Source: Bilabrum cf. latius
Lineage: Eukaryota
Assembly (NCBI GenBank): GCA_965178125.1
Contig: OZ237764.1
Span: forward strand, 1-64,000
DNA length: 64,000 nucleotides
Direction: 5' to 3'
In this document: one piece after another, positions 12,546-50,700 of the stretch
Position numbering within the stretch: position 1 is the stretch's first letter
Layout of the letters: every line of letters starts with the position of its first letter
Notes under the pieces: model-generated
What the model was told of the DNA's origin: nothing
Seen by the model: the letters and a program-made list of their open reading frames with translations, nothing else
Database searches by the model: none
Made by a program: the position numbers and the translations under genes

Positions 12546-12567
12546 TAAGAATGAATGTGGAATCCAA

Positions 12568-23588: not shown

Positions 23589-23591
23589 TTT

Positions 23592-23791: not shown

Positions 23792-25460
23792 ATGAGCGAC
23801 CCGTGCGAGAGCGACATTGCCCTCGGCATCGTGAAGGAAGACTTTGGAGATCTCAGCCACGTGAGGTGCCGCGCGTCTCACCCTGGATTCCTTGTGTGCG
23901 ACCGCTCGCCCCTAGAATGCGCGCTCGATCCGCGCGCCGGCCGCCCGGAAGTGGCACGGTCCGCCCACCGCCGGCGTTTGTGGAATTCGAACTTGGGAAA
24001 GCCACTCGATCAATCGGCGGCGCGCTTGGGACGTAGCGCTGGTGGCCGGGCAGCGCCGGCGTTCGCCCCCCATGAGAGCAGGTGCTGCCGCGGGCCCGGC
24101 TGGTGCAGGCGCTGTGTGCCGCCCTTGCAGCGCGCCCGTCTCGGCCCCCATCTTGACACCCCGATACGGCTGCGAAAGCAAGGTAGCGCGCCTGGACCGC
24201 GCTTCGCCTCTTGTCCCAGTCGCGTCCGCTCGGACCGACCGGCCTCGACCCCGCACACACCATTCTGCGCTCGCCGCATTCCTCCTACTTCTTCCGCGCG
24301 CGCAGAGGCTGTGCAAGCTGCTGCAGGAATCCGGGCCTCTCACGAAGGAGCAGCTGCTGCTGGCGCTGTGCGCGGGGCACCCGCCGCTCGCGCCGCCGCC
24401 GCCCCCGCCCCCGGAGGCGCTGGCGGGGCTCCCCTGGCGGGCCCCGGGCGGCGGCGGCGGCGGCGGCCCGGGGCGGCCCGCGCCCGCGGGTGGTCCCGGC
24501 CACCAGAGCGGCGCGGCGGCCTCCTCGGCGGCGTCGGCCGCGGCCACGGTCTCCATGGGGGGGGCGACGGGGTTCACGGCGTCGGCCGCCGCGGCACGGG
24601 CCGCCAGCCTGGGCTCCCGCACCTCGGCGGACCCCACGCTGCCGAGCCTCCCGCAGACGCCCGCCGAGGTGCAGGGCTGCCTGGCCGCTCTCACCATCCA
24701 CGGCATCGTGCAGCCGCGGGCCGAGGGGGCGGGCGGTGCTCCCTCGTCGTCCGCTTCCTCGTCGTCGTCCTCCTCGTAGGCGTCTGCAGGGACGAAGCGG
24801 AAGCGGGGCGGCGCCGGGGGCGACGCGGGCTCTGCAGGGCCCCAGAGGCCTCGCAAGCCGAGCGCCCGCATCCGGTACGAGTTTGCTCCGCGGGAGGCCC
24901 TCCGCCGGCTGCAGCTGCCGAGGGTGCTGGAGCGCGTGCGCAGGCGGCTGGGCGCGGTGGCGCAGGCCATCGCGGAGGCCCTGAGCATGTACGGGAGCAT
25001 GACGGTGGGGCGGCTGCGGATGGCCACGGACCTTTTGCTGGAGGACGAGATGGAGGACGGCGCAGACGGCGAGGGGGAGGCCGAAAGGATGCGGGACGAC
25101 GATTCGGACGGCTCCGACGAGGACGGGGTGGGCGGCGCGACCGGCGCCCGCCGGGGGGACGGAGCCTCCTCCACGGGCTCCGGGCGGTTCGACCGCGCGT
25201 GGACCGCGCTCCGGCAGCAGCGGCTGGTGCGCCGGTCGCGGGGGCTGGTGCTGCCCCCGGACCTGCTGGCGGGCACGTCGGGCGCGCTGCCGGCGCAGGG
25301 GCTCAGCGGCAGCGTGCGAGACGTGGGCAGGGGGGCGCTGGCGACGCTGGGCGTGGACGCCGGGGGCCCCGACCGCCGGGACGAGGCGCTGCGGGCCGCC
25401 ACCGGCTCGTAGGCGTCGATGCGCGGCGGTGGGGGGCCGGTGGGGGAGGGCGAGGCCGAG

Positions 25461-25494
<34 letters not shown>

Positions 25495-26723
25495 GCCTGG
25501 GCCTGGGCCTGGGCCTGGGCCCGCGGGGCGGCAAGCGCGGCAAGAAGAAGAGAAAACAGCCAAAGAAGTCGAGGTTGTCAAAGGCGCAGGCGAAGCGGAG
25601 CGGCGGTCGGAGCGGCGAGGAGAAAGAAGCCGACGGTCCCGGTGACGGCGAGGAGGCAGAGCAGCTGTGGTGCCTGGACCCGCGGCCGCTCACGTACCTG
25701 GACCGCACCGAGGCCGTGGTGCTGCAGGTGCAGGACGCGGTGAGTCCCACGGGTGCCCGGATCGTCCGGGCCATGCTCGACAAGGGCCCCCCTCCCGAGG
25801 CGCCCTCGCTGCCCACGTCCCTGCAGACCCTCGCAGACCGCGCCCGGGGGGAGGGCCCGGGGGGAGGGTCGGCCGCGCCGGAGGCCGAGTGGTCCGCCGA
25901 GGTGACGGCCCGCGAGATCTTGGAGCAGCTGCAGCGGGACTTCAAGCGGGCGCAAAAGGCGGGCGAGGCTTGGACGCAGGGGGAGCGGGCGGTCTCGTGG
26001 ACGGGGGCCTCGCACTGGAAGACCCTGGGCACGCTGCTGGAGGTGATGCGCAGCGAGCCGCTCGAGGTCGTGGAGAGGGTGGGCCTCGGGGCGGACGGGG
26101 GCAGCTGGCGGGTGCGGGTCGGCCGGTTGGTGTCGCGGATCATGCTCAGCCGCGCCGAGGAGCTGGCTAGGGTGTCTGCCGTGGCGGGGGCAGAGGCGAG
26201 GCCCGCCCACCAGCAGGCGGCCGCCTCGGAGGAGCCGCAGGTGAGGCGCGCGGCGCGCAGCACGGCCATGCAGCACGGGATCGGGTGCCGCCGGGTGCTC
26301 AACTACTTGCGGGCCAAGGGGCAGGTCCAGGACAAGGCCGTGGCGGACGGCACGCTGCTGTCCCTCAAGGACGCCCAGGGGCACCTCTTCACGCTCATGC
26401 GGCTCGGGATAGCCCGCAACTTCCCGCTGCCCCGGCGGGCGGACCACGCGCCCGGGCTGACCGTGTACCTGTGGGACGCGCCCGAGCACCTCGAGCGGGC
26501 GGCGCTGGCCCGCAAGTGCCTGCAGGCGGTGCGGAACGTGGTGCTGCGCAGGAGGCACGAGGAGAAGCGCCTCGAGGAGGTCACCAGGGCGGCCGCTGCC
26601 GCGGGGGAGGTGGCGCAGAGGGCGCGCGCCGGGCTCGTGCAGCGGGTCAGGCACGGGGTGGAGAGGCTTGACGCGGCGGCGGCGCGGCTGGCGGCCGAGT
26701 TCGAGCAGCTCATGGAGTGGTGA
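23792..26723 (+). CDS. POLR3C: RNA polymerase III subunit RPC3/RPC62 (RPC82); predicted intron 23861-24305; in-frame TAG at 24777 and 25410
   Basis: N-terminal IVKEDFGDLSH|RLCKLL, middle YEFAPREALRRLQLPRVL...IAEALSMYGSMT, C-terminal GCRRVLNYL...KDAQGHLFTL...LPRRADHAPGLTVYLW, resembling the RPC3 IPKTPDHAPSRTFYLY motif; ends at TGA. Confidence 0.8.
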
Positions 26724-26968: not shown

Positions 26969-27855
26969 TCACTTGCTGGGTGATCCTGCTCCCGCCGCAG
27001 CGAGGTCGGGCCACCACATGTCCTCGCCCGCCCCCCTGGGCCTGCGCACCAGCCGCTCCCAGAGGTCGTACTGCGCCTCCACCACCTCGATGGCCACCTC
27101 CCGCGACAGGTAGCGACCCTCGAACGCAAACTCATTGGGGGGTTTCCCGTCCGGTATCTTGTAGTCCCTGAACCAGGTCCGGATGGCGTCCAGCCGCTGC
27201 TGCAGCGCCGCGTCCTCCTGCTGCCCCACCACGGCGTCGTACACAGACTCGGCCAGCGGGTCGCCCACGCGCACCGTGACAATCTTCCAATCCATCTCAC
27301 CACCATCCACAAGTGCCAAGGCACCAATGACCTTCACCTCGTACACGTCTCCAGTGCTGCACGGCCTGGACGACAGGTCCAGCACATCCAGCGGATCGTT
27401 GTCTCCGGCCAGGTCCAGGCCGCGCTCGCGGTGCTCTGGATCCTCCCAGGTCTGGGGAAACGCTCCATAGTTGACGGTGGAATCCATTGGATACTCGCGT
27501 AGCTTTCCTTTCTTGGTGTCTTGCTTGATGGGATTGTACGGAGTTTCCTTGTTGATCTCGAACTTGGGCCGCGACCTGCGCGCACAGGCGCGTATCGAGC
27601 GGCAAGGACGGGCAAAGGGTGGACATGCAGGCAATCAGGCTCTTTCTATTCCAGACTGACTGTCTCATCAAGAGCAACGGCACGCAAGCTAACTCACCCC
27701 TTCGGGATCTCGCAGACGAATCGGTACACCCCCGGCTGGTTGCCCGGCGGCCGAAGCGGGATGTTGTGCCAAGGCGAAACCTTCTCCCCTGTTTCACCGT
27801 GCACGTAAAACAGCTGGTATTCGAGCGTCCCCGGGGTTCCCTCTGCCTTGAGTGC
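26969..27855 (-). CDS. PPA: Soluble inorganic pyrophosphatase (family I, eukaryotic type); intron 27576-27697; 5' exon(s) unresolved
   Basis: VSPWHNIPL, VCEIPKG|SRPKFEI, NPIKQDTKKG, NYGAFPQTWEDP, GDNDPLDV, DGGEMDWK and WFRDYKIPDGKPPNEF motifs; ends at TGA. Confidence 0.92.
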
Positions 27856-28363: not shown

Positions 28364-29790
28364 TCAGCTGAGCCCCTTGGCGCGCTCGAACAGACCGTCC
28401 ACGACCCCATCCAGGGCCGCAACTGCCTTGAGAGCCGCCTCGTACCCCGGATCCCCCCCTGCCTCCCGGAACACGATAAGGTGCCCCTTGCCCTGGTCCA
28501 GTGTCCCGTTGAGCGCCCCATCCAGGATCATCTGCGAGAGCTTAGCCTCCACCCGGGGGAGCGGAAGCGCGATGCTCTTGGCCACGTGCTCCAGCTCCAC
28601 GCGAGAATACGGCTCCACCACCCGCAGCAAGTTCGCCTCCAGCATCGTGTCCGCCAGCAGCCCCAGGTGGTACCCTACCAGGGGGTCCTCCGTCAGCGCA
28701 GCCTCGTACTCGCGCTGGGCCCGCAAGAAGGCGTGCAGCGACCTGGCCTTGTACGCGGTGGCGACCGCCCGCATGGCCTCGATCTGGTCACCCGCGTGCT
28801 CCACGCCGTGCTTGCCGTTGATGAGCGCCATGGCGTCATCTGTGTTTCCGTTCATGATCTTGGCCAGCAGCATGCGGCGGAGAGCTGCCCTTGCCGCCTG
28901 GGTCTCCCCCATGTGAGACGCGGCCTCGAAGCCCTCGAAGAAGTAAGAATACGCAGTCTTGTAGTCTCGATCCTCTGCCGCGAGCGCCCCGGCCTGCGCA
29001 TCGATGCGGGCCTGCACCTCGGGGCCCAAGTAGACCGAGATGGCGGCCGTCCTGGCCGCGGTCAGCGAGGCCCGGGCCTTGGGGAAGTTCTTCAGGGCGT
29101 AGTGCACCTTGGACTCGGTCAGATGGACTTCCACCAGCAGAGGCTTGTCATCGAGCTTCTTGACCTCCCTGGCCAGCGACTGGGAAAGCGCAAGCGCAGA
29201 CTGAAACTAGCCTTGCTCGAGCAGGAGAGCTGCCAGCTTGGACTGAATGCGCATCCGAAGGAAATTTCTCTTCTCTTGCTTGCACCAAGCCACCGATTCT
29301 TTGCATAGGGACACCTACAGGTCTAATGTTCCTGGAATCTTACCGACGAGGTCGACAAGGGTCCGTACTGCGTGCTTGGCTTGAGCGACGCAGCAATGGG
29401 GTCCGTGTGCAGCCAGCAAGAGGATCACACGCCACGGGCAGACTTCTGTGACACTTCAAAATCAACATACAATGCAGCATGTATGATCGGGAGGGCTCCC
29501 GCATTGCACTCACCTGTCTTGGCCGTCCTTGCCTTAGGAAGTAAACCGAAGAAAGGTCTGCACTCTCGGAGCAAAGCCTCAAGCTTCGCAGCCTGCGCTG
29601 TTTTAGCAAACAACTCGCCCAGGCGATAGACAGCCTGTTCTCGGATCTTTAGAGCTTCCGGCGAGTTGTCGTCAGAGCCAAGCACTCCTTCGCGAAGCGA
29701 CGCTTCAGCGGCATCCTTATCAGAATCTGCGAGAGTTACAGCTTCATCGAGCTGCCTTTGCAATGGATGGGTGTCTTCTACTGCCGCCAT
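28364..29790 (-). CDS. RPN6: 26S proteasome lid subunit RPN6/PSMD11; intron 29368-29513; in-frame TAG at 29315-17 and 29207-09
   Basis: [63 protein letters not shown] and PCI-domain [12 protein letters not shown]...GTLDQG; ends at TGA. Confidence 0.95.
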
Positions 29791-29949
29791 GAGTATTTGG
29801 TGGAGGGGAAAGCGCACTGTGCCGCGAAAAGCTGATTTGCTCGGTTTGAGACATTCCAATCTTCATCTTCAAATGCATCGCCGAGTGGCAAGTTGGAAAA
29901 GCGCATGCACCGAGCCACTGCAAGGCGAACCACGCAAGCAAAAACACGG

Positions 29950-30969: not shown

Positions 30970-33192
30970 TCAAGCCTTGCCTCTACCCCGTCCTCTCCCT
31001 CTCCCACCTCCTCTCCCCCTGCCACCCCCACGTCCTCGTCCTCGCCCACGGCCACGACCCCTGCCGCCCCCACCACCGAGCCCCAGCGCCGATCTGTCTC
31101 CATACGACGTTAGCGAGCCCAGCATGCGGTTGCGGCGCTTGTCCCTGATCTTGTTGCGCTTCTGCTCCTCTTCAAACTCGGCCAGCTCCTCGGGGGTCAT
31201 CGCGTTCAGCTTGTCCTTGAGCTTCTGGGCCTCCTCCTTCTTCTTGGCCTCCCGTTCGGCATGCAAGCGCTCAAAGAACGTCGCCTCGCGGGCACCTGCA
31301 TCGTCCTGGTCAGCGCCAGGCCTCTTATCACTCTTGCTACCCCCAGCACCAGCTTCTCCTGCTTCGGATTCGGTGGCTGGGTCAGCGCCATCACTCGCCT
31401 GATCTGCGCCACTGGAAGCTGGAGCTGCATCGCTGCCCGCATCACTGGCCTCCCCCTCCTATTCGCCATCTTCAGCCTCGGCCGCTGCATCGCCGCGGCT
31501 GCTCTTCTCTTCTTGCTCAGAGCTCGAGTCATCGCGCCTTCTCCCTGCCACCGCCCCTTCGCCGGCCTCCGCATCGGCATCTTCCGCATCGGCATCTCCT
31601 GCTACCGCGCCGGCATCTCCCGTGACTCCCGCTGCTTCATCGCCGGCAGACTGCCCAGGCTCTCCGTTGGATCCGTCTGCAGGTGCGTCTGCCCCCGCCC
31701 CGCTGGACGGTCCAGCCGCTGTGGCACCATGCATGGCCAGCTGCATGCGCCTCTTGCGCGCCAGGGCCGCAGCCACCTCCCTGTGGTCCACGGCCCCCCC
31801 TCTCCCCCCCTCGTCTGCCTCCTCGTCGATCGAGTCTGCCCGGCTGTGAGCCCGACTAGCAGCCCTCGAGGCGCGGATACGCTCCCGCAGCGCTGCTTCC
31901 TCCTCCTCACGCTGCTTGGCTAGCGCCTCCGCTTGTTCCCTGACCTCCGGGGGCTCCTCCCACGTGCTCTCCCCCGTCTTCTCGTTGAAGTAGTACGGCT
32001 CGCCAGTCTCGTCGTCCACCGCTTCCTGCCAGCCCTCGGGCATCAAACTCACTCCCGACCCGTAGTGCAGAGTAACATCCAGGTGAAGCCACCCCAGCTT
32101 GCCCAGCAGGTCGGCTTTCATGAGTCCCTTGCGAGGCCTCACCCGCCACCACTTGTCCACCCGGATCGAGTGCGCCGAGATCACCGCGTCCTCGTCCCCG
32201 AATAGCTGCGAGAATCGGACGCTCACCACGCCCAGCTCGTCGTCCCTGCCCACCATGTCCTCGTCCTTGAGTACGAAATCGATCCCGTCCGCCAGGCCAG
32301 GGTCCCCTGGCAGCATCTTGACCTCGCCCAGGCCCAGCGCCGCGGTCGAGGCAGAGCCCCCGGGCCCCCCTGACCCCGAGGCCGCATCACCCGTAGATCC
32401 TGCGCCTTCTGGCAGCTCTCCATACTGCAGCACCTCCTACCATACCGGGTCAAGGGTCTGTTTCTTGGTCTTGGTCTGGTGGCTGGACGTGCCCTGCACG
32501 TGAGCCCCCGTCCTGGTGAGCAGCTTGACCTTCACGTACGGGTCGCTCTTGCCAGTGTAGTCCGCTGCAAGCAGACCCTTTCCCTCCGCTACTCGCACCA
32601 CGGCAGACACCGGGTGGGGGTCCATGGGCGGGGTGTGCAGGAGCAGCTGAAGCCGCACGTGCCCGGTAGCCGCTATTGACATGCCTGCTCTTGTCTGGAT
32701 GGGGAACCGTCGGTCCAGCAGGCCTGTTCCGAGAAGCTCACCTTCACGCACCGGCTCTCCACTGACTGGCATCTCCGCGTCCTTTGCTTCGCCGTCCTCA
32801 CCCGACCCAACCTCGGTCCCGTCCAAGTTATCGGCCGTCCAGGCCCTAAGGTCGTCCATGTTGATCCGGACCTCGCCGAGCGGGTCGTCACGTCCAATCA
32901 AATCCCAGTCCTTAATCTTGAATAGAATTTCTTTGTACTCTGCCACGTCCACTTTCTATCCAAGCGAGAAGGTCTGGTCCCACTCGGGGTTTAAGGTATC
33001 CGGGATGGTCCTAGTTACGCGCTTCTCATCAGTTATTTCCTTGCCATCATGTCCTATCGGAACAATACTAACATATGGATCGGATAAACCGTTCCTATCC
33101 ATAGAAAGGACATCCTTAGCGTCCAAGACCCCCACCAGCAAGGTAGCTCCGCCAAAAGCCTCGTCCCGCTACCGATGAGAGAGCCCCAATAC
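30970..33192 (-). CDS. Protein with two C2 domains, a WW domain and an RG-repeat tail; first exon unresolved (upstream of 33192)
   Basis: MDRNGLSDPYV...TLNPEWDQTF...DWDLIGRDDPLG; ADYTGKSDPYV...TLDPVW[TAG]E...DEDMVGRDDELG; WW motif PEGWQEAVDDETGEPYYFNEKTGESTWEEP; four same-frame ORFs separated only by TAG; ends at TGA. Confidence 0.85.
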
Positions 33193-33597
33193 CTAACTAA
33201 AAATAGAGGCACACACATCTCCGTGGATATCTGCGCAATCAACAAAGGTAGGGACAAACTGGGACATGGAGCATGGATCCCTAATGTAACCGGGACGTGG
33301 CGAATTTAGCTGCGGCACGTGTCTTACAACTATTCGACCCATAGTCCCGGCCCGCTCGCTCTTTCCAACCGTCATCAGATTTCCCCCTTGCTTTAGCCCC
33401 CTTCGGCCTCCGGAAAAACTTGGCCATGCTGCCTCGGCGAATGTCAAGATCCATCGCGACGATTCTAGCAGCGAACCTGGGTCAAAATGTTGACTGAACG
33501 TTCCGCTAATGCATTGCATTGCAAAACAAGTGAGGCGAGCGCTGAGTTTGCTCAGCGAGCTTCTTTTCACATTGATGCTGATATCGTTGATTTTCTC

Positions 33598-35041
33598 ATG
33601 CCAAAGAATCGAATATGTTTTCTGAATAGCAACCTATTGCCTGTTTTAATAGCCTGGAACGCCGTATTGGCGAGCGGAAGCTGCAGTGAGACAACCGGAA
33701 GCAACTGGCACCGCCTCTCTTGCGTGGACACCAAATAACCCCCTCTTCCCGCTCCCACATTCTTGCTGGCTTGCAGATAGGGCATGCAGTGGCCACGGGC
33801 TCTGCCAAGGCGAACCGGCTCGCTGCTTGTGCGAGCAAGGGTACTCGGGAAACTCGTGCGAACTCAAGCTGTGTCCAACTGGTCCATCGTGGGCAGATTT
33901 ACCGGGCAGCGTGTATGGCCAGGAGGAAGCGTCCCCATACTTTGCATTATATAGTATTGATCTTCGCCAGTCCTCAAAATTTCCCTCTCGGGATCCGAAC
34001 CGAACGGTCCTAGGCGGACGCACACTGGCGGGCATCTCGTCTGTCGCGGGCTAGGCGCACTACCACAGCACGTGCAGCGGCCGCGGGCAGTGCGATATGA
34101 ACCTTGGGATGTGCAGGTGTTTGGCCGGTTTCACTGGCTCAGCCTGCCAGCACCGTGAGAATCTGAGCACCACAGCCTACCGCGCTGACACACCACTGGC
34201 ACGTGCTCCTCTCTTTCACACGTCATGCTGTCTGCGGTTCCACCGGCTTACATCGCTCGCAGTCAGGTGCCCAAACGATTGCAGCGGATATGGCGTCTGT
34301 GTAGGACTGCAAGAATAGGATCGTGACTTGCAGAGTTATGCAGCCGCTAGCAGCTACCGCCTGTGGGACGGCAAGCACGGAGCTGGCTGCAGGTGCGACC
34401 CCGGGTTTGGAGGCCACGACTGCAGCGAGAGGCGTTGCGAAGGCAGTGTGCGGGGCAGTGAGGGCCTCTCAGAGGGGTGTCCGGGGGCTGCGGGTCAGTC
34501 CACGTGCATGCTGGTGCACACGGTGCAACTGACTGCCAGTCCCTCCACGCCACTTGTGGTCCGTCTGCGAGAGCCACTGGCGGGGGAGGGAGAGAGGGAG
34601 CGGGGAGGGGCGCACCGGTGGCGGACACAGCGCGCCGTGGTTGTGTTGGCGACGGACGCGCTCTCTGGACTGCACCCACAGGACTCGGCGGCTGTGGTAC
34701 GGGCCGCTCTGCTGCGGCAACTCAGGGGCGCAGTGGCCTCGAGGATCGACGTGTAGGGGGCATACACTAGTGACGGAGGGCAGTCCCTGTCCATCATGCT
34801 GCCGGGCGCGTCCAGTCGCACTGAAGTGCGCGTATCTGCGGTGTCTGCCCGCGGGCCCATGCGGGTGCAGACCCAGAGCACGGCTGGAGGCAGCGGGCAC
34901 GAGGTGGTCGAGTGCGGGGACAGGGGGGTGTGCGACAGGGAGCACGGGGTGTGCAGGTGCTTCGGTGGGTACGGGGGCGTGGCATGCGAGCTTCGGCAGC
35001 GGTACAGACCAGGGGCAACATCAGGTTGGCGGCACAGATGA
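33598..35041 (+). CDS. EGF/tenascin-repeat secreted protein of the Sig1/Ocm1 tubular mastigoneme type; predicted introns 33686-33776 and 34155-34262; three in-frame TAG
   Basis: Signal peptide then CSGHGLC...[19 protein letters not shown]...[13 protein letters not shown]...[18 protein letters not shown] and terminal [29 protein letters not shown] at 34052, 34316 and 34754; ends at TGA. Confidence 0.75.
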
Positions 35042-35101: not shown

Positions 35102-36595
35102 TCACGAGACGAACCCTCGCGCAGCACCAGACACAGCCTAGAGTCGAGCTTGGTTGGCCACGGCAGCTCGCAGAAGGCTGTCCACGACGCGCTCCAGGGA
35201 GTTTCCCAGCCACTGACACACCACACTGCGTGCTCCCACCGCATCTCCCCTCATACCCTCCCCACCTTTACACGCCAGACTGCTCTCGCCAAGGCACCCC
35301 AGCTCCTGCACCAGCCAAGCCGCAACTAGCACGATCGCAATGCAGCCAAACAGCATCAATATAAGCAGCACCGGCATGCCGAGCGAGTACCAAGCGAGCT
35401 GCCCCAGCACCGTGGCTTCGCTCCCGACCTCTGCTGCTGCCATCGAAGCGGCACCCTGGCCTGGCCGCCCGTCCCACCAGCCGAACCCATCCGCGGTGAG
35501 CCTCCCCGCCCTGTCGCCCTCCTGCACGGCGCGGAGGTTGCGCGGCAGCTCATCCACATCCAGTGCATGCTTTGACTGCACCAGCGGCTTGCTTTCGCAG
35601 CCCCTTTTCACCCAGGGGAAGGGTGCGTTCGGGGGGCAGGCCCACAGCTCCGGCCAGGCATCGCGCAAGCCGGGCACAACGGCCTCGAGCTGCTTGAGCA
35701 GAACGTTCGTCGGCAGGACTGCCATGCACTTGCTGGCTCTCGCGATCATTACAGTGATGGGTGGCCCCTTGGGCAGCTTGTCTTGGTGGAAGACTGTGTT
35801 GAGGGCCACCGCAGCTGCGTTCGATGCGGGACAGCCCTCTGCTCGCAGCCGGTCCCATTCTTGCAAGACCTTCGCTTTCGCGTTGCGGACAACTTCGGCC
35901 GCTACATACATGGGAAACAGAGGGTGGTTGCTCGCAAATGCGCGAAAGCACTCTACGACCGGATCCACCGCGCCCTTGCGCCGGTCCATGGCAGCACGAG
36001 AGGGGTCGCCGCGCAGCGGGTGCGCGAACCACGTCCTTGTCCAGCCGATCACCGCGGCAATAGGCGAATCAGCAGTCTCCACGACTGCAGCTAGCTCGGA
36101 GTCTCGCGCTCTCAAGATAAGACGGACGGCTTCGACTGGGAGCATCATGCACTTGGCAACAGGCTCTGTGGCAAACCCTCTCAGATGCCAGCGCGCCAAG
36201 CGGCGCAAGATAGGCAGTGCAAGCTGCGCCTGGTCTCGTTCAATGCATGCCGCAGCGATGTCGTGTGTGCCCTGGGTATACACGACGCGTCTAGCGGGAT
36301 GGGAGTGGTCCACAGTCTCAGCAGACCAGCTGTGAAGAGTTCGATCCAATTCCTTTTCCATCTTGTGAACAAGATCCTTGTTCTACAAGTTGAAGCTTCT
36401 TCGAATATCACAATTGATAGTCCTGTGGTCAGCATGCTTCTTGTTGACTGCGATTCATGCAAGCAAGTTGGGCTTCTCTGAATATGGGGCGAGGTTTGCT
36501 GCGACGGGTAGTCAACCTGAACAACACATCTTACGCCTGCAGCCTCTGATTGCTGGAGCATCAGTCACTCGGAGCAGCTATGCAACGCCTTCCAT
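35102..36595 (-). CDS. TBC1D20/Gyp8-like Rab-GAP with a C-terminal transmembrane segment; start uncertain
   Basis: DHRTINCDIRRS, VYTQGTHDI, WTRTWFAH and SNHPLFPMYVAA motifs; hydrophobic tail; TAG at 36383-85 and 35138-40; TGA at 35102-04. Confidence 0.7.
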
Positions 36596-36738: not shown

Positions 36739-38026
36739 TCAATGATCTCCCGAGTCACCATGCCCGCCACCCTATGGTGGTCCGTCCTCCACAACCAGCG
36801 CAGGCATATCTGCAGGCTCCACCCAGCCCGGGCTGCCCGACTTGGGGACGACCCGCTCAAACAGGAACATAGCACCAACAGTCTTGAAGTCCGGAGCCAT
36901 CCGCCAGGCGTCCTCGTATCGGACAATCCGGAGGCAGATCTGCTCGTCCGAGATCCCCCCGAGTCGGCCTTGCAGTCGGTCTAGATCTGGCCTCGCGATG
37001 CTGCGCTCGCACGAAAAGAGCCTGATAAACTCATCGCAGCCACCTGCCGACGGATAAAGCCCCTGTGGAGTCCATTTATCGTCACTGCCAGCCCCATGGG
37101 GTGACTCGCCACTGCCGGCACCTTCAACTGCGCTTGTGCTTGCGCCGCTTGCACCCGCCACACCAGCCGAAGCAGCCTTCGCGGGCGCCCTGCTACTTGT
37201 ATGGCTTGAGAATGCGGTAGCAGGAGACACGAACGATTCGGACAGCCGCGATTCTGCAACCAGGTCCCTGAGGTCCTTCTGGCCCAAGACAAGGCCAGCC
37301 TCTTCACGCAACTCTGCGGCGGCCACCCCTGCAAAGTTTCCGTCCCCGTCCATCATGCCAGCAGGAATTTCCAGAAATCGAGCGCATCCAACCGGTAGTC
37401 TGGGCTACTCGGTCAACAAAACGTAACGTTCACCCTCGCAATGCAGAACCACTAGAATACCAACAGCCCCGCCGCGGCAAAAGCAAATGCCTGGAACTCG
37501 CTTGCCTCCCCGAGATGCCCCAACCCGAAACTTTATGAAACCGACTCGTTTCCCAAACATGTCTAGACTCTGAAAGTGTACGCTGTCTACCTAAAACTCT
37601 TCGTCAACAGAAGCTTTCCAAGACCTGTGGAGAAAATGAGCGCATCATAGGCAAGACACAAGCAACAAGTGCACAATAAAATTGTCTGGACTCTCAGATT
37701 CGTGCCGGCGGTTGCCATTCCCACACAATCATGCATACAGAGCGTAACGTCAGCAGCACCATGAGCAGCCTCGATGGTTACCGTTGGAAGGCAATCATCC
37801 CGTGGGCACACACACTAATGCAATAAAAAGGCATTTGTGCAGGGGAAATTTGATGCGGGAGCCCTAGTGGCAGCTTGTTGCGCGAGGCAAGGCGGCAATA
37901 CCCGACTCACTAAAACTGGGCTGAACTGAGGCAAGCCCCGACATCGATGCCCGGCTCTCCCGTAATATCAACAGACTTTCCTCGTATCTTGCAATCATGC
38001 GTGCATTTCGTTGATACTCCGGCCAT
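36739..38026 (-). CDS. Nudix hydrolase, NUDX14/ADP-sugar pyrophosphatase-like; intron 37625-37910; four TAG sense codons
   Basis: QSLDMFGKRVGFIKF...VPGICFCRGGAV...YVLLTE[TAG]PRLPVG...LEIPAGMMD...AAAELREEAG (Nudix box), YPSAGGCDEFI, APDFKT; TGA at 36739-41. Confidence 0.9.
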
Positions 38027-38354: not shown

Positions 38355-40192
38355 TCAGGAAGACTTCTCGCCCGCGCCCCCCGCCGCGGCTCCGCTGGCG
38401 AAGAGCCCCTCCACCTTGGCGGCGCTGGCCTCGATGGCGGGCACGTCGTGAGTCTTGAACTTCAGCTCGCTGGCCTCAAATCCAGGCATGGGGAATTTCT
38501 GCGCGAATGCGTTCACGTCCGCCCTCAGCTTGTCCACCCCCTCGTCTCCCTCGAGCGCCTTGCCGAAGTCGGCGAGGCGGGGCCCGCTCTTGGTCTGCAA
38601 CTCCAGGCACAGCTGCACAGCGCGGTGCAAGAACTCCGCGATGGCCTCGAAATCCTTCTCCTTCATGCCGCGCGTGGTGAGCGCGGGGGTTCCGATGCGC
38701 ACGCCGCCGGGTGACATGGCAGACCTGTCGCCGTAGATTGCGTTCTTGTTGAGCGTGATGCAGGCCGCGTCGCACAGCTTCTCCATCTTGGACCCGGTCA
38801 GCTTCTGAGGGCGCAGATCCCACAGGACGAGGTGGTTGTCGGTGCCTCCAGTGGCCATGGTGTAGCCCTTGGACACGAGCGCGGCGGCCACTGCCTTGGC
38901 GTTGGCCTTGAGCTGCTGCACGTAAGCCTTGAAGGCAGGGGTCATCGCCTCCTTGAGCTGAGTGGCCACGCCGGCGATCTGGTGCTCGTGGGGTCCTCCC
39001 TGCAGCGCGGGGAACACTGCCATGTTGATGGCCTTCCCGAAGCCCCTGCTGTCCTTGCGGTAGAAGATCATGCCCGCCCTCGGGCCTCGGAGGCTCTTGT
39101 GTGTCGTGGTGGTCACCACGTCGCAGTACTCGAATGGGCTGTCCGCCTCCTCAGTGGCCACCAGACCAGAGATGTGCGCCATGTCGCACAGCAGCAGCGC
39201 CCCGTTGGCATCAGCAATCTCGCGGAACTTCTTGTAGTCCCACTCGCGCGGGTAGGCAGACCCGCCGCACACGATCATGGCGGGCTTGAAGAGAGCAGCC
39301 AGCTCGGCGAGCTTCTCGTAGTCGATGCGCCCGTCCTCGGAGGACACGCGGTAGGGGAGCGACTCGAAGAAGATCGAGGTGGCGCTGATGTTCTTCTTGA
39401 CGCCCTCCTTCTTGCTGTACGTGTAGTATCCGTGCGTGAGGTGGCCTCCTGAGGGCAGGTCCAGGCCCATGATGCGGTCGTGCGGGCGCAGGAGCGCGGT
39501 GTACACTGCAAAGTTTGCGGGCGATCCCGAGTAGGGCTGCACGTTGATGCCCCACTTGCTGGAGTCCAGCCTGTAGGCCTTCAGGGCCCGCGCCTGGCAC
39601 AGCTTCTCGACCTGGTCCACTACTTCGTTTCCACCGTAGTACCGAGCTCCGGGTAGACCTTCGCTATACTTGTTCGTCAGCGCAGATCCCAGGCAGTCCA
39701 TCACAGCACGAGAGGTGAAATTCTGCGACACGGGTGCAGTGATTGCTGGCAGTCAGTCATACGAGTCCTTTGACCAGGAATGAACCAGCCGATTGGCATT
39801 TCAGTGTACTCGATCCAAACTTACCTCAGACGCAATCAATTCCAAGCTGCTCCACTGCCGGGTCTTTTCCCGCTCTGTGATACAAGCGAGTACAACGTTG
39901 GGCGAGGATCCCGCTGGACAATATCGAACCCTAGAGGGTTTCAGCTGCTATAAAGCAGCTCTACAGACACAGGAGGACTCACCAATCAGATCATACATCT
40001 CAGGGTCGTGCTCTTCAAGCGAAACGTTGCCTGGCTGCGAAGGGAGGGGTAAAAGGGACGTTGTAGGCTGGAGCAGGCGTAGGCGACTCTTGGAACATTG
40101 TAAACAAGGAAATTGCGTTGTCTCTAGCTCAATTAGGCTCGACTTACTAGCGACTTTGGCACATCTGATGAGGAGCCAGCTGCTGCTGCCAT
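38355..40192 (-). CDS. SHMT: Serine hydroxymethyltransferase, probably cytosolic; exons 40192-40148, 40034-39983, 39874-39825, 39722-38355
   Basis: Spliced product has [56 protein letters not shown] and GTDNHL; three GT-AG introns keep the frame; ends at TGA. Confidence 0.97.
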
Positions 40193-40774
40193 ATTTACTG
40201 TTTTCAAGCTCAGGATGCGAGGTGACGTCTATACTCTCGTCGCCGCGCAATTCGCGCTGGTGGTTCCGCTATGGACCCTCTCGCGAACAATCGGCTCCTC
40301 TGCAACACGACCGAGCAGTCTTGCCTTGATTTTCTAAAACCACATTATTGATAATGCTTGTATTCAGCTGATTCGGTTGTTGATATTCAATTATGTCGAC
40401 TTTGTTATGGGCAGGCTAGTTTAAGAATGAGTTTGAGGCTTTGGTCGTATATCAGCGGGCAGTGAGGAATTATTGCATCATTAGCTTAACCACTTTTATT
40501 ATTTCTATTGTATTGCATTAAAATTCCCACAGAAAGCTTCGGATAACGCTATGAACACCTCATTCTTAGGGTTTTTGTTTTGCAGGCTGCTATCTGTCTT
40601 GTGGGGCTGCAAGCTGAAATGTTTCTGGGTGGAGCGGGGTACTTGAAACATCTTTTTAGGCAGCAGTGTACCCGGAGTGTCACTCAAAGCACGGGTGAAA
40701 GGCCAGTGGGCTCCTTGAAGCGTACAGCGGCCTGTGCCACCGCCGAAGCTCAGTTGGACTGGGCGATTCCCTGC

Positions 40775-43700
40775 ATGCCTGGCGTAGAATTAAGTGAATT
40801 GCAAGACACTAGTTCGCCACAATCATGGGATCCGCCGGGGACGCAGTACCCTGGCTTCGGCCGGTCCTCGTCTGTGGAAGCTGTTGATGTGCAGACTCCA
40901 ATGTCGGATGCCGCTTGTCTTGCGACTATTCGCGCGAACCCTGCGACAGCGGGGCCTACGTCTGCCACTGCTGTAGCATAGTAGCTCATGCCGGCCCACA
41001 TGGAGGCTCTCAGGGACATGCACCGGGACCCTCTCACAGGTCGCAGGCTGCGCCCTTTCGAGGCCCTTGTGGTGAGCAGGGACGGGTCGGTCACACGGGT
41101 GAGAACCGTGCCCATCGAGCTGGGGAAAGCGGCAGCCCAGCCCGCCGGAGTGGCCTTTGTGCGCTCTCGCGAGCTAGCTCAGGCGCGGGACCAGCCGGTG
41201 ATGCGCTTCGTGCCCTTTTTGGGCGAGGACGAAGACGTGGACAAGATGAGGGATGCGTGCGTGTACGACGCGAGGCCGGACCTGCCGACTGCCTGGAGGA
41301 GGCGCATGGAGGCATAGACCGCGCTCTTTTGTGCGTGCAAAGCGATTCTAGAAGCTGCATCGGGCGGCGAGCAGGCGACGGCCGCTGCACTGCGGGCGTG
41401 TCCAAAGCGAGTGCTGCGTGCCCTGTTGTTGCCGAGGCGCGTGCGGCCAAGCAGCGCTCGGGAACACGGCGCCGGGGCGCATTCAGCGTTACCACTGCAG
41501 CTGCTGCACGAAGAAGAGATGGAGCATGCAGGGCACAGGGGAATTCTTCCCGTGTCTGGCCCCGCGGATGTCGCTGCATCGCTGTCAGGGTCACAACCGT
41601 GGAGGACGAACGGGTCGTTCACAGTGCCACCCAGCGCGCTTGGCGTGACGGCAGGCATCTTTGCGGGGGCGACCGCCGGCGTGCTTCGAGGTGTCACCTA
41701 TCTGGTTGAGGTACCTGCACAGCTAGCTCTACGGCTGCACTCCTCGATGCTGTCGCACCTGCTGACCATGCCCGCCCACGAACTACAGGCTCTCGGCCCA
41801 CCATCGAGCTAGCTGGGCCGGACAACACTTGCATCGCGCGACCAACAGCCCAAGATGGAGACAGGTCTCGATAGAACCGGCTACCTGGCGAACGGTTCTA
41901 CTGCCAGCGTTGCGAAGGCCGCAGGGAGCGATGCTGCTGCTAGCGCGGGTCCCACCAAGCCATCCTGGAGGCGCGCCGTCCAAGCCACTAGAAGGTCCGT
42001 CGGACCCATGCAATCGCAGCTGTGCATATTCTGCTTTAAGTACGCTTGCACGCAGCACAAGGGCTCGGACGCTGCAGCTAGTACGGATCAGGAGTTGATT
42101 CCATTGTCTGCGCCACCGGCTGCCCTCATGAGTGAAGCCACTGTCTCGGAGCGAAAAGGCGATCCCACCGTCCCTCTAGGCATGGTCATGGATGATGAAG
42201 CTGCCTGCGGCTTGCTTGGAGCGGCTGGTATTGACCCATCGGGGCAACCTAGCCAAAGGAGGCTGCCGCGCATGCTGCGGTGCCCCGCGGACGACTATCA
42301 CTTGAAGGGGTTTCGTCGCCTGCGAGGTAGACAACTCTTACGTGGGGTTCAGCGCGTAGTGCAAGACTCTGCTGGGCTACATGAAGCTCAGCTACGATCC
42401 AGTCATGGGGCAGAGCCTGGGCCGATCACTATTGGGACGAAGAGAGACCGCCTTGGTGAGCCAGCTGTCGCACCTGAATCCAAACAGGATGCCGAGGGGT
42501 CAGAGTCGGAGGATAGCACACAGTCGACCGCCGTCGATGAGCGTCTGGACGCGTTTTTTAAGTGGGCGGAGGCAGTTTCAGGATGTGGCCACCAGTGCTA
42601 TGCGAGATGCATCGGGGGCCGACAGAGCAAGTTTGTCGTTTGCCTTGCTGGCATAGGCAAGCTGAACAGCCGCAGCACGCTCCCTGCACCAATTCATCTT
42701 CGGCAAGGTGATATTATCGGAACCCCACACGTGCTGTGTCTTCGGCCCATGCACATCGATGGGATGGCTGCTTAGCTTGATAGAGCATGCGAATGGGATA
42801 ACCACAATCGCACAATGGCTGTTGCGAGCGACACTGAAGAGGTGGTGCGTGTTGCAAGGACTCAAGATGGTGCCGGTGCAAGGCGAGCGGGTTTGGAACG
42901 CCGTCGAGAGCCGAGCCGACGAAAGCATCGCGCCCCAAAGCGGACAGGAACAATCACAGCTGGCATGCTTGGATCAGTCTCACCTGGAGGGTTGTGCGGT
43001 TCTGGCGGCACATCAATCGATGCGCATGAAGCTGAGCTTGCCAAGGCAGCCCCAATACGCTCGACTGTAGGTGAATGGGTCGCATCCGAATCAGACGACT
43101 TGAGCAAGGCGGTTGACCCTCTACTGCCGGCCTTCTCCATTTAGCGTGTGGTACAGGATGGCGCGACACCCAAAGGGTATGCGTCTGCACCTGGCTCCCG
43201 ACTGGGCATGATCCATGGGGAGACGTCACTCGGAATCGGTGTGCACCTGCCTGCTTCATCCTCCCGGTGGGAAGCGGCAGACAGGAGCTCGCCGTCGGAC
43301 TGTCGCGGATTCTCCGGGGTAGTGATGCCCCCGACCGGGTGGTGGCACATGTCGGGTAAGTTGAGGGTCTGGCAGGCCGATGCATGGCTACGCGTGCACG
43401 CCGAGCTCACAGAATGTGAGCACGTCTTCGGTGCCGCGAGCGAGCCAGGCCAGAGTTCCTCTATCGAGCCCCTCGCTGGCTCAATGGGCGACGGTAGTGC
43501 ACGCAACATGTGTGCCGTGGGCATGACGGCAACTGACGGTTCAGGATCGTACAAGTCGCTGCCAGTCTTATCTGAGAGCAGCGCGCTAGCGCTCGAGCAG
43601 TGCGAGGCAATCTTACGAGATGAAGTGGCCACTGGGCTCGTGCTCAAGGCACATGCGGTTTGCAGCGGGTGCGTGTGTACTGCCGCTGAACTCTTGGGAT

Positions 43701-45553
43701 GCTCTTGCCTAGTCACAGGGCTGGTTCTTGAGCGGATTGGTGTCGCGTGCTGGGCTCTAGATCCTGTCGAGGCAACTCATGATGCACGGCAGGAGGTCAA
43801 ATCGCCGGGTGTGGGCCAAGCATCCGGTATGGCTGCAACGTAGGGGGCTGATGCTTCTCCGCTCACCCAGCTGCTTGATCCTGTGGCGGATGCTGATGCG
43901 CTGCAAGGCAACTATCCGGGCACTGGGGATGTGATACTGTCTATGCGGCTTGGTACTTGGGAGGGCCTGGACCGCCTCAAGACCCCTCCTCGCAAGCACT
44001 CGAACCGTAGGCGCGTCATGGTGTGGTGCGACCATGACGGGCCGTGCAATTCGGAAGCATCGCAGTGCAAGTGCGTCATCGCAGGCACTGTGTGCTCAAA
44101 GAACTGCGGTTGCGATGAGACTTGCAAGAATAAGTGGTCTGGGTGCGTCTGCGGGCGCAAGGGACAGGTGTGCTCCACCAGAAACGGATGCCCTTGCGTG
44201 GCCAGTGGCCGTGAGTGCGATCCAGACGTGTGTCAGACCTGCGAATGCCTGATTGCACATCAGATTGGACTAAGGCACTCTGCTGCATAGGCCAGTAGCT
44301 CAACCCTTCAAACAGGAGACTGGTCACTGCAGCTGCGCCAGGCAGCCGTGAAATTAGGTGGAGACCCGACGCTGCTATTACCTCCAATTTTAAGTGACCA
44401 TTTTGATTCCTCCAGTCACGGACGGGGCTCTGCAGATCGTGTTGGTGCGCTTGCTGCAGCCCAGGCTGCTGTAAAAAGGTATAGTGATGTGTGGGCACGT
44501 GAGCTTGCGGGCATGTAGGCTTATGGGAGCACAGCCAACGTCAGTCCCAGTCGCAAGAATGGGCCAGTCATGCCACGGATGCACACTTTGGCTCGACTCG
44601 TGGCAGCTGCCCCTGAAGCAGCGGTACGAGCATGTGTTGCGCGCGACGCAATGCAGTCCCAGATGCGGCATAAGCTAGAGCCATTCAGGGGTATTGCTGG
44701 TTAGACAGGCCCCCTAATCCACCCTGTCGCTGCAGTGCAAGGCGCCTTGGCTTGCTGGGCGTCGATTGCGTTCAGTAGTGGGAAGTAGCTTGTGGCTGAA
44801 CAGCTCGTGTCCCAGTCATGCTCGAATTCCCGAGTACTAAGTAGGCTGCATCACACTGTGCGCCCAGGCGTCAGCGCTGTGCCGCACGCTGGATACGGAC
44901 TATTTGCAACTGCTCCGGTGCGCGGCGGGCGGCTGCTGCTGGAGTACACTGGAGAACGACTGGGCGAACTTGAATCAGAGCGCCGGGGGCAGTTGTACGA
45001 TGCGCGGAATCGAAGCTACCTTTTCGACCTTGACGATCAAGATGGCGGCGTGGATGCGACTCGCCTTGGGAACAAGATGCGATTTGCCAACCACATGGGC
45101 AAGGGTCACGTGCTGTAGAACAGCAGGCAGCGTTAGCTCCTGTCTTTGGCTCGTGAGAGAATCGGTCTCTTCGCGTGCCGTCCGATCCAGGCAAACGAGG
45201 AGCTATTCTTTGACTACGGCTACTCGAACAAGCGAGCAAACAGCGAGCGGGCCAAGCACGTCGGTTGGATCAAGGATGCCCGCATGGCGGGAAGGGTGCA
45301 GACGGGAATGGTATCTTCCGAGGGTGCCAAGCAGCCCAGCAAGCGCCCTGGTACCAGCGCTGCCGTATCTGAGGCTCACACAGACGATCCCCTGTACGAC
45401 GGCTAGCGGCCGAAACCAGGCGGACGCGGCAGGGGTCGAGGTTCGCGCCGCGGAAGAGGCAGGGGGCGAGGGCGCGGCTAGCGGCGGGGCCGGGGTCGCG
45501 GGTCTCGAGGCCGTGGTGCAGCCACGTTCAGCGTAGTTGACTTGGTGGGTTGA
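40775..45553 (+). CDS. E(z): Enhancer of zeste-like CXC-SET histone methyltransferase (PRC2 catalytic subunit); start and one possible intron near 44.5-44.7 kb uncertain
   Basis: FVPFLGED (SAL-like), CIFCFKYACTQH, CGHQCY, CXC domain CDHDGPC...CPCVASGRECDPDVCQTC, SET motifs GYGLF...EYTGE...RRGQLYD...SYLFDL...VDATRLGNKMRFANH...RIGLFA...EELFFDY; nine same-frame ORFs that end in TAG; TGA at 45551-53. Confidence 0.88.
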
Positions 45554-47700: not shown

Positions 47701-50700
47701 ATGGCGCGGCGCCATGAAACGGGCAAGACAGGTAATCCATGCTAGACAGCTAGTCTTTTTATCAACCACCACATGATTAGCATACTTATACCATGAAAAG
47801 TGTTACAGGAAGCGACCATGCGATTAAAGCAAAGGGGCTGTGGGCATTGCAGACTCTTTCGAACGTCGCGTCCGCCGCTGAGCAACGCGGATTGCGTTTG
47901 CAGCTATCTGTGGTCGAGACTGCTATGGTGGATGATGGAATGCCATCTACAATACTATCATCACTGGAGGACGGTGGATTCCGTTCTTATGATTTAGCTC
48001 GGTCTGGAGCTGTGCCTGGGGCTGCCGCCACCGGTGCAGCCGAGTTGCAAAGACGAGTGGAACTCGTCATGCACCGCTTTGATGTATTCCTGAAACGAGT
48101 TGGAGCTCCATGTCACGACGATGCTGATGCACCATTCTGTTTTGCGTGGCGCACAAGTGGGGATGTAAAGTCGCTGTCGCGAGCCGAAGCGCAGCGGTTG
48201 TTGCTAGATTCCAGCTGGATGCGAGGTGCCGCCGCGCTGTAGCCAATACCAATTACACGATAGGTATGTTCAGCACTGTATGAACGCCGTCGCACTCTAG
48301 TAGGCACTCGTGTAGCTCCGGGTGCATCGCTGGTTGGAAGCGATCCAGCAATCGACGAGGAGGTAGCGGCAGCGGCTGGGGGCAGCTAGGACGGCGGCAG
48401 AGAAGCCCATGAGGCTGCAGCCAGGCTCGCTAAATTACTTCAAATTGCCCATGCAGAAGGAATGGTTGGGACATCATCTAGGGGAGTGCATCCGTGGCTG
48501 TCCCAGCCCGGAGGCGAGGGGCAGGCAGCATCCAGTTGGATCGTCACTGCGGGACCGGGGGCGCCCCCCCTGGCCGGACTGGACGATAGAACCGCAAAAC
48601 GCGAGGCTGGAGGTACGCGTGTGGGTGCATCAGGCAGGGCGAGTAGGCGGCGGAGCAGTGCTGGTTTGGAAAGGGGCGCGGACAGCACCGAGGGAGACGA
48701 CTCCGGTGATGAGTTGACTGCAGCGGGGTAGGGCAAGCGGTGCACTCGAGTGAGGGTGCTGCGGCTGCTTGCGCGCTTTGCAAGGACCCCTGATGGTGTA
48801 CTGAGGCTCACAGGGGTGGCAGATGCCGCCCTGCAGCACATGCAGATGCCGGCCCCCGTGCGGGTGGTGATGGATCCTGCCTTGGCGCGGGCACAGGCAG
48901 CCGAGGAGGCGGTGCGGGCGGCGGATGAGGCCGAGGTGGCCTTCAGGGAACAGCTGAGGCTCGGTTAGGAGAGGGGAGTGGGCTTGGCGGAATCATTCGC
49001 GCATTTTGATCCGACGGGCCGGGGGTGGGTGGACGACGAGGCGCTTGAGGAGGGGCTGCGGCAGCTCGGGCTGGAGCTGCACCCCATGTCCATGAGGCTG
49101 CTGGGCGAGAGGTTCATCCGAAATGCACGGGGTCGCATCACCCTCAAGTCTTTTCTGACCTTCGCACAGGCCGCTACCACTTCCTAGGACACAGGGGCCG
49201 GTCTAGTGGACTCGTCTGGCGGAGCGGTAGGGCAGCCACCCCCAGTCGCACCCGGCGTGGCTGGCGAGCGGCCGTTACCTCGTGACGGCACTGAAACCCT
49301 ACTTGATGCTCGGAACGATGCGAGTGAGGGAATTGGGGCAAGAGATCCCCGAGAGCTGGCCGCTACTGTGAGGCTGCCAGTGGGCGGCAGCGATGCGGCC
49401 GAAGGAGGGAGCACCGAGGGGGGCGCACAGGCTGGTGGTAGCACTGTGGAAGGCGATGACATCAATGATGCGGCTTCCCAGGCGCGCTCCTCAAGCGTTG
49501 TTCGAGTCCTGCAAGATGCCCGCCGCGAGGCCAGCGCGGGGGTGTTTGCTGGTGACGAGCAGCTGGCGGAGCTGCAGGCTGTGGTCCGCGTGCCATACGC
49601 GAGTGGTGATGCGTGGCAAGGTCAGTCCAAGGCAGCGCGGCAAGCTGCTCTGTCTGCGCACCCTGCGACTGTGCTGCAAGGCGAGTTGGCGGAGGAGCAT
49701 GCCAAGATGACCCGGGAGAGACGGGCGCGGTTGGCCAAGCACAGCAACGCTCGGAGCGGGCTGGGCCCCACCAAGCGTGAGCTCGGGCTGCTGGGTCCCT
49801 CTGAGGACGGCCGCCATCGCGATCTGGAGGGAGTGCTGGTGGATGCGATGCAGAAGCTCGATGCAGAGGATCCCGACGATGCGTTTCACCGGAGCAGCAT
49901 AGGGAGGAGGAACAGGCGCCTTGCGCGGGCAGCTGGACACTAGCGGCTAGACGGGGGTGGCACGTCCAGGGGTGCTGTGACCGAGTCCAAGCATGCATCT
50001 CGCGCTACAAACTCAAAATCAAGGAAAGAACGTAGCACTAAGGGGAGGCGGGGAAGGCACGCGCTGCCACCAGGTATACGTCCGCCCGTGCCCCTGCAGG
50101 AGGCCATGCCGTTGCACCCTATACGACCGAAACCCGATACCACAGTGGTGTCGGTCCGGGCGAAACCAGAGGAACCCCGTGGATTCGGCATTGTGGCACC
50201 AGCTTCCGAGGGAAGCGGGGGCAGCGATCTGTCGGACGAAAAGAACCGCCGAGGCGGAGTTGCAGGGATCCAACGAGCGGGCAGTGTTTCCAACTTGCCA
50301 TCCAGAACACCTACTGAGGCCGCCATGGCAATGATTGCCCGCACGAAGGATTTAACGAAAGGTATCGAGCTCGGTATGCAGACTGCGTGGGGCGAGGGGG
50401 GCGACAGCAGCGATTGGCGGTAGGCTCAGAAGTATGCTGGGCCTGCCAGGGGAAGGCTAAGCAAAGCACGGGGCAACAGGCGTCGCAGGCGCGGCCGAGG
50501 TGCGGCTGCTGATCTCGGGAAGTCGCCGTTTGCCGCATCCCTCCCGGCATGGGCAAGAGGCCCATCGAAGCGCAACGTGAGCGAAACCATGGCCACGCTG
50601 TCGCAGTCAGCTCGGGCGCATGTGGAGGAGGTCGCCGACGAGGCGGAGAAGTCCTTGCAGGCGCGACGGAGACGGCCCGGAGGTGGGAGGCAGCTTGCAA

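Follow-up and report, generated by a model that had tools for sequence, protein, structure and literature searches.

How can a gene for a subunit of the proteasome lid be translated along its whole length when two TAG codons lie within its reading frame? This question is raised by the RPN6 (PSMD11) gene on the minus strand of a stretch of DNA from Bilabrum cf. latius (GenBank assembly GCA_965178125.1, contig OZ237764.1), of which positions 1 to 64,000, a length of 64,000 nucleotides hereafter called the window, were analysed. A first-pass annotation had reported the two codons in RPN6, placed one of them at a conserved glutamine (Gln, Q) and considered pseudogenisation unlikely in a gene that appeared otherwise intact. 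That account understates the case, as it noticed one gene, whereas the feature is a genome-wide sense reading of TAG. The sequence comparisons described here argue that the organism uses a variant nuclear code in which UAG is an ordinary Gln codon and UGA and UAA terminate, the pattern of NCBI translation table 15, and a probability of roughly 0.9 is assigned to this reading.

The RPN6 gene and its two TAG codons

RPN6 is encoded in two exons separated by a single GT..AG intron (Table 1), and from its ATG to its TGA the frame is open except for two internal stops, both of which are TAG. The minus-strand reading quoted in the first-pass annotation (…LLEQG-TAG-FQSAL…) was reproduced together with both TAG positions, which form the two ends of its 29207..29317 interval. 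The identity of the gene is well supported by the protein of exon 2, which contains RPN6_N (PF18055; 49.6 bits, cut-off 26.5), PCI (PF01399; 58.9 bits, cut-off 22) and RPN6_C_helix (PF18503; 26.9 bits, cut-off 25.8) in the order expected for RPN6/PSMD11. This protein aligns end to end with solved RPN6/PSMD11 chains at E = 5.8e-100 to 1.8e-84, the top match being spinach 8amz_Q (E = 5.8e-100) and the others fly 3txm_A, human 5vfp_X and yeast 3jck_C. Chains of the paralogous PCI protein CSN2 match far more weakly (E = 3e-15 or worse), which identifies the gene as RPN6 and not CSN2. Compared with the 26S proteasome lid subunit of spinach, fly, human and yeast, the domains are the same and no structural difference is seen, just two Gln positions written as TAG. 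Along the gene (28364-29790), G+C and G+C at third codon positions (GC3) climb from 5′ to 3′, from ~54% (29501-30000) to ~66% (28501-29000), and both TAGs fall in its less G+C-rich part.

The column that holds the first TAG was examined in a multiple alignment of the best 24 hits from 5.8 billion proteins. It is occupied by Q in 22 of the 23 homologs that cover it and by A in the remaining one, so that the conserved Gln proposed earlier is borne out; among the solved chains, spinach has Q there and both fly and human have V. The column of the second TAG is variable, with Q in the 91% identical relative P0003 and R, K, H, E, S or Q among more distant homologs.

A closer comparison is provided by a related locus, L002, which consists of 17358 nt of a 22830-nt metagenome contig with 53% G+C, and which was reached through P0157, a database SHMT protein 88% identical to that of the window. 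L002 is collinear with window positions 27.7-45.3 kb at 66-79% nucleotide identity, and carries the EZH-like, SHMT, NUDIX, TBC, EGF, C2-WW, RPN6 and pyrophosphatase genes. Its RPN6 ortholog matches exon 1 of the window at 69% identity (L002 14974-15234) and exon 2 at 89.6% amino-acid identity. Over exon 2, the proportion of nonsynonymous differences (pN) is 0.073 and that of synonymous differences (pS) 0.78, which is saturated, so that the pN/pS of ~0.09 implies a ratio of nonsynonymous to synonymous substitution rates (dN/dS) well under 0.1; for comparison, the dN/dS of SHMT against L002 is 0.05. RPN6 of the window thus has the features of a normal, functional and expressed gene for the proteasome lid, of which the two TAGs would be two Gln codons. 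The L002 copy carries three TAGs of its own, all at other places than those of the window; they face CAA, CAG and ACG of the window copy. Compared with the window, its exon 2 also has 141 nt inserted in frame (L002 15849-15989), probably an extra intron.

TAG across the genes of the window

TAG occurs in frame in at least 10 open reading frames (ORFs) of the window besides RPN6. Ten window ORFs with 12716 codons in all hold 114 TAG, 386 CAG and 131 CAA codons, such that TAG makes up 18% of their Gln codons (114/631); a mis-framed row for the NUDIX gene was left out of these counts. The TAGs are spread over many unrelated genes, although 65 of the 114 lie in the giant frame at the right of the window alone. 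The same stretch of DNA contains 12-23 TAA and 32-133 TGA in each of its other five frames. The giant frame, of at least 5421 codons, encodes an E/R/A-rich protein with coiled-coil-like stretches and shows no intron signal. With TAG taken as sense, the ORF of the C2-C2-WW protein gene at 30970-33645 on the minus strand amounts to 891 codons and includes 6 TAG.

Protein domains that are cut under the standard code become whole when TAG is read through. The standard-code Pfam scan covered 150 of 191 filtered ORFs, drawn from 461 ORFs of at least 70 amino acids (the other 41 lie at 53.8-64 kb, under the giant frame), and the read-through scan covered 15 long frames in which TAG was given as X. 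The GC3 filter applied to the ORFs removed RPN6 exon 1, and was therefore too strict for less G+C-rich exons. Under the standard code, two C2 matches of 56 and 40 bits end at profile position 50-55, cut at TAGs, whereas reading through TAG yields one whole C2 match of 110.8 bits (profile 2-92). The SET domain, similarly, is a fragment covering profile positions 83-105 in the standard code, and extends over 1-105 with 53.2 bits and two TAGs inside it once these are read through; the TBC match rises from 16 to 25.3 bits. Wherever neighbouring same-frame ORFs with split domains are separated by a stop, that stop is TAG; TGA is found at the ends of the genes. The alignment of the C2 domain to synaptotagmin crosses the TAG without a gap, in a variable column (V) that is uninformative on the residue.

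Two genes of the window, those for SHMT and inorganic pyrophosphatase, have almost no CAA, GAA or AAA and a strong bias toward G/C-ending codons. TAG may be avoided in genes as strongly biased as SHMT, though SHMT of L002 does have one TAG.

The residue specified by TAG

A second informative column is found in the NUDIX gene, where the TAG at 37405-37407 lies in a QPR motif. This position is Q in all 25 covering homologs and is encoded by CAG in L002. The two other NUDIX TAGs lie at variable places, and one of them, E in a 92% identical relative, is Q in L002. A search of the PDB with the NUDIX protein gave no match, and its hits among sequences give no useful lineage signal, the named ones being fungal at no more than 36% identity.

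The residue was further addressed by comparing the window and L002 codon by codon over nine true-frame pairs; an out-of-frame pair ('PPase_b', 27% identity) was left out, and antisense-frame and telomere-repeat matches were left uncounted. L002 holds 41 in-frame TAGs in 4115 aligned codons from 8 orthologous regions, including one in SHMT and three in RPN6. The SHMT codon faces CAG at 39614 of the window, and the partners of the five TAGs of the C2-C2-WW gene are CAA, TAG, CAG, CAG and GGG. Overall, at 21 of 52 sites (40%) a TAG in one species is matched by CAG or CAA in the other, and at 4 further sites both species have TAG. The 40% equals the proportion for ordinary Gln codons, which face Q in 40% of cases, and no residue has codons opposite TAG as often as Gln does (8.5% of cases). 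When the partner profile of TAG was compared with those of the amino acids, the second-best residue was more than 50 log-likelihood units behind Gln. Fifteen sites lie in a well conserved context, with identity at 80% or more of the twelve flanking residues, and their partners are Q in 11 cases, E in two and S in one, the last site having TAG in both. Leu and Ser, the residues specified by UAG in some other nuclear codes, are each the partner of TAG at one site in 52, and their fit is much poorer than that of Q.

TAA and TGA as terminators

No internal TAA or TGA occurs in the ORFs of the window, nor in the 4115 codons of L002 that were aligned. Had TAA been a sense codon, with TAA:TAG following the CAA:CAG ratio, ~39 internal TAA would be expected in the window and ~31 in L002, and the probability of finding none is below 1e-13; only TAG has therefore changed. 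TGA closes each of the eight window genes compared, and TGA or TAA closes their L002 orthologs, at matching C-termini. In L002, TAA terminates three genes, among them RPN6, whose TAA stands at the same C-terminal position as the stop of the window copy.

Two other explanations of the TAGs were rejected on these data. A code in which both UAA and UAG (UAR) specify Gln (table 6) conflicts with the absence of internal TAA from both species and with the use of TAA to terminate L002 RPN6. Programmed stop-codon readthrough would be expected at a few end sites with a stimulating 3′ context, whereas the TAGs are internal, number in the hundreds and are free of context: the base that follows them (G 40, C 34, A 22, T 12) is distributed as at first codon positions in general, which leaves no sign of a readthrough context.

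Transcripts and genomic contigs

Contigs from four public runs of four studies (X1, X5, X6 and X8) were mapped onto window positions 23100-41000. Those that extend over the RPN6 TAGs span 27102-41000 (X1), 28291-29367 (X5), 28465-29367 (X6) and 28917-30374 (X8), and none has a variant letter at either codon. X1 and X8 are DNA contigs that agree with both TAGs, and those of X5 and X6 jump from 29367 to 29514. Fifteen such joints were found in total, most with GT..AG ends, and all are confined to X5 and X6 bar one joint in X8 that lacks GT..AG; since spliced joints are so many there, we infer that X5 and X6 contain complementary DNA (cDNA). The spliced contigs retain both RPN6 TAGs; neither site shows a variant letter, a gap or a joint. 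The RPN6 transcript is therefore spliced at its single intron with both TAGs kept. In the C2-C2-WW gene, likewise, an X5 RNA contig spans 31059-33230 unbroken.

A probable variant code and its alternatives

The mechanism of a UAG-only code can be proposed from the other codes of this kind. By analogy with them, UAG would be decoded by a dedicated transfer RNA (tRNA), tRNA-Gln(CUA), which is one base change away from tRNA-Gln(CUG) and would pair with UAG and not with UAA; on this proposal, the specificity of the CUA anticodon is the reason why UAG alone changed. The release factor eRF1 would have lost termination at UAG and kept it at UAA and UGA.

Several observations weigh against this account. 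The window holds tRNA-Gly(GCC) only and the related loci L001-L004 and L021 hold no tRNA, so that no tRNA with the anticodon CUA was found in them, nor does the eRF1 gene lie in the window or in these loci. At 31 of the 52 TAG sites the partner is a residue other than Q (T 7, E 4, H 3, D 3, G 3 and others), although ordinary Gln codons are equally variable. The second RPN6 TAG corresponds to E in spinach, to Y in fly and human, and to Ser (TCG) in L002. The cDNA status of two runs is inferred, as X5 is labelled 'RNA? (probably DNA)' and X6 'RNA?', and one DNA run is possibly the window's own source, for which reason the four runs cannot be counted as four separate proofs. Finally, the ORFs were delimited by TGA and TAA, and occasional termination at TAG would thus escape, though no case was seen.

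This last point speaks for an ambiguous code of the type found in karyorelict ciliates or Condylostoma, in which TAG would be Gln inside genes and, depending on context, would also end some of them. Genes terminated by TAG would have been read through and missed, and orthologs allowed a check of only ~8 gene ends. Such a code nevertheless seems improbable: those ends that could be checked are TGA in all 8 window genes and TGA or TAA at matching positions in L002, and TAGs occur along whole genes, even near their 3′ ends, as with the NUDIX codon at 36775-36777, 11 codons before the stop. It is less probable still that TAG specifies another residue, be it Glu, Tyr, Leu, Ser, Lys or pyrrolysine, or that near-cognate tRNAs read it as a mixture of residues. 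That view could draw on the TAGs that face E, T, H, D or S in L002, on the E and Y residues at the second RPN6 TAG and on one of the variable NUDIX TAGs, which is E in a 92% identical relative. It is countered by Q as the partner at 11 of the 14 well conserved sites with a partner other than TAG, by the substitution profile, and by the two near-invariant Q columns (22/23 and 25/25) that both hold TAG.

The remaining alternatives concern RPN6 itself or the reliability of its codons, and both are highly unlikely. If the gene were an expressed pseudogene decaying with two nonsense mutations, a TAG-free functional paralog would have to exist elsewhere; the evidence on this comes from the window, the related locus L002 and a protein search. 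The strong purifying selection measured against the syntenic ortholog, the lack of frameshifts and of TGA or TAA stops, and the spliced transcript led to the rejection of pseudogene status, in agreement with the first-pass annotation. The L002 ortholog, moreover, has its own TAGs at other positions, nearly every long gene of the window carries them, and the protein search gave no TAG-free near-identical copy, its best match being the 91% relative. A TAG-free paralog would in any case no longer matter, because TAG-bearing genes are the rule here. The proposal that the TAGs are sequencing errors, or that RNA editing or tiny introns take them out or alter them ahead of translation, finds some support in the context of the first TAG (CCTGTAG|GTG), which superficially resembles a splice acceptor. 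It is at odds with the unaltered, ungapped RNA contigs of two studies across both TAGs, with the DNA contigs of two further studies, and with homologs that align without gaps at both sites. Reassignment of UAG to Gln is accordingly preferred over each of these alternatives.

Lineage and relation to known codes

The best named matches of RPN6 are Bicosoecida sp. CB-2014 (58%) and a EukProt entry labelled 'PLAT' (56%), and those of SHMT, at 72-77%, are Ectocarpus, Chrysoparadoxa, Saprolegnia, Undaria, diatoms and other oomycetes. In a quick tree of RPN6, the window protein and P0003 join unnamed proteins (approximate likelihood-ratio test, 94), while the deeper forks are weak and do not place the organism. 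From these matches, the organism, a microbial eukaryote, would be of stramenopile affinity, with no closer placement.

Variant nuclear codes are listed in PMC11687900, and the comparisons with them are drawn from passages of that article. UAG alone specifies Gln (table 15) in the fornicate Iotanema spirale and in the ciliates Protocruzia tuzeti, Hartmannula sinica and Trochilia petrani. The organism studied here resembles these lineages in having UAG as sense at conserved Gln positions with UAA kept as a stop, and in that most long genes have at least one UAG; in H. sinica, UAG makes up 18.5% of Gln codons, against ~18% here. It differs from the table 15 ciliates in that their main stop is UAA and its own is UGA, and from table 15 lineages as a whole in being G+C-rich (window ~60%, L002 53%) and in belonging to another lineage, whose best named matches are stramenopiles. 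UAR specifies Gln (table 6) in many ciliates, ulvophycean green algae, Hexamita, Streblomastix and Amoeboaphelidium. In these codes too, a stop has been captured by Gln with interchange of TAG and CAG, but here TAA is never internal. That UAA and UAG are coupled is usually explained by a UUA anticodon, which reads both (PMC11687900).

The codes in which UAG specifies Leu (an uncultured rhizarian exLh, and TARA phyllopharyngean ciliates) or Ser (Scotinosphaera) share with the present one that UAG is uncoupled from UAA and is the sole reassigned codon (PMC11687900); the residue here is Gln instead. Code-15 phages (such as crAss-like and Lak phages) also use TAG as Gln, but have viral genomes, bacterial hosts and other release factors, whereas the DNA studied here is nuclear, with spliceosomal introns and telomere repeats. 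The list of variant nuclear codes in the passages of PMC11687900 names no stramenopile. A search of the literature, mostly without subscription journals, found no report of nuclear UAG reassignment in stramenopiles, and a search on table 15 gave phage papers and PMC11687900 only; the sequencing runs date from 2025, and a recent report is possible. The code is of a known type, in an apparently new lineage. That it represents an unreported and independent origin of UAG-only reassignment to Gln, in a eukaryote that is G+C-rich and has stramenopile affinities, and with it the first variant nuclear code of that supergroup, shared by at least two species and both old and fixed, is put forward tentatively, at a little less than even odds. 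Its age and fixation are argued from its being common to at least two diverged species, which differ in G+C content (~60% and 53%) and whose SHMT proteins are 88% identical.

Other features of the window

Coordinates are collected in Table 1. The window begins with a stretch of 42-49% G+C (positions 1-6568), compared with ~60% elsewhere, that contains long uninterrupted ORFs on the minus strand and C-terminal sorting domains of the type IX secretion system (T9SS type A) in two of them (1544-3781 and 5957-6568). This stretch is Bacteroidota-like bacterial DNA, and since its 6.5 kb directly adjoin a telomere repeat, the junction suggests a chimeric join or scaffold and not biology. The orientation of the hexamer array fits the left end of a eukaryotic chromosome. 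The L002 contig also ends in such a repeat, (TAACCC)n at 1-100, which there adjoins the EZH-like gene; in the window this gene lies ~33 kb from the repeat, and the two species therefore have different chromosome ends. Short arrays related to the 19-nt repeat lie at 12429-12546 and 13650-13756, which suggests a dispersed satellite.

Table 1. Features of the 64,000-nt window, with coordinates on the forward strand
Feature	Position	Strand	Remarks
RPN6/PSMD11 gene, whole	29790..28364	-	two exons, one intron; ATG 29790, stop TGA
RPN6 exon 1	29514..29790	-	ATG 29790-29788; without TAG in the window copy; end from RNA joint 29367|29514 (X5, X6)
RPN6 intron	29368..29513	-	146 nt, GT..AG (CT..AC on + strand); spliced out in X5 (depth 106) and X6 (depth 21) contigs, depths not being a measure of expression ranking
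RPN6 exon 2	28364..29367	-	PCI domain and C-terminal helix; stop TGA 28364-28366
RPN6 first TAG	29315..29317	-	in frame, read as Gln; Q in 22/23 homologs, CAA in L002, Q in spinach
RPN6 second TAG	29207..29209	-	in frame, read as Gln; variable column; Q in P0003, TCG (Ser) in L002
C2-C2-WW protein gene	30970..33645	-	TAGs 33193-33195, 33169-33171, 32956-32958, 32437-32439, 31459-31461; ends TGA
NUDIX (ADP-sugar diphosphatase-like), last exon	36739..37622	-	TAGs 37591-37593, 37405-37407, 36775-36777; intron 37623-37908 from RNA joints
EZH-like CXC-SET ORF	40547..45553	+	1668 codons, 15 TAG, ends TGA; L002 syntenic ortholog with 23 TAGs
Giant frame	47736..63998	+	5421 codons, 65 TAG, 0 TAA, 0 TGA; runs off window end; no Pfam family
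RabGAP-TBC-like gene	35102..36454	-	2 TAG, ends TGA; L002 ortholog
EGF-repeat protein gene	33650..35041	+	TAGs 34052, 34316, 34754; TGA at 35039; introns 33686-33776, 34155-34262 (RNA joints)
POLR3C-like gene frame	23865..26723	+	TAGs 24777, 25410; ends TGA
SHMT main exon	38355..39722	-	no TAG, ends TGA; Pfam SHMT 549 bits; comparison gene and synteny anchor
Inorganic pyrophosphatase, last exon	26969..27573	-	no TAG, ends TGA; introns from RNA joints
tRNA-Gly(GCC)	23591-23663	-	only RNA gene found in window
(CCCTAA)-type hexamer array	6566-7451		perfect, 147.7 copies
53-nt repeat array	7454-7911		8.6 copies
19-nt tandem array TGAGGCGATTCTGGGCCAG	20680-22982		~128 copies, 81% matches
129-nt-unit tandem repeat	12567-13538		7.5 copies, 97% matches; also scored at periods 261, 390

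Implications

Changes of the nuclear code are rare. Those that uncouple UAG from UAA are even less common, since a single release factor recognises the two codons and a tRNA able to read UAA can read UAG as well. Only a handful of lineages in which the two are uncoupled are listed in PMC11687900. The organism studied here would be a further independent case, in a G+C-rich genome with UGA as the main stop and in a group not known for code changes, and would therefore be a test of hypotheses in which reassignment is linked with A+T pressure or codon rarity. If the proposed origin holds, the lineage, apparently represented among several of the cultures or samples sequenced, would offer a new and possibly culturable system for the discrimination between UAG and UAA by eRF1, and a new natural pair of eRF1 and tRNA for study. 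There is also a practical consequence, in that annotation under the standard code would fragment most long proteins of this organism and its relatives, and their genes may pass for pseudogenes. Such truncation is already seen in the relatives' database proteins P0003 (290 amino acids) and P0243 (207 amino acids), both of which begin well inside the gene.

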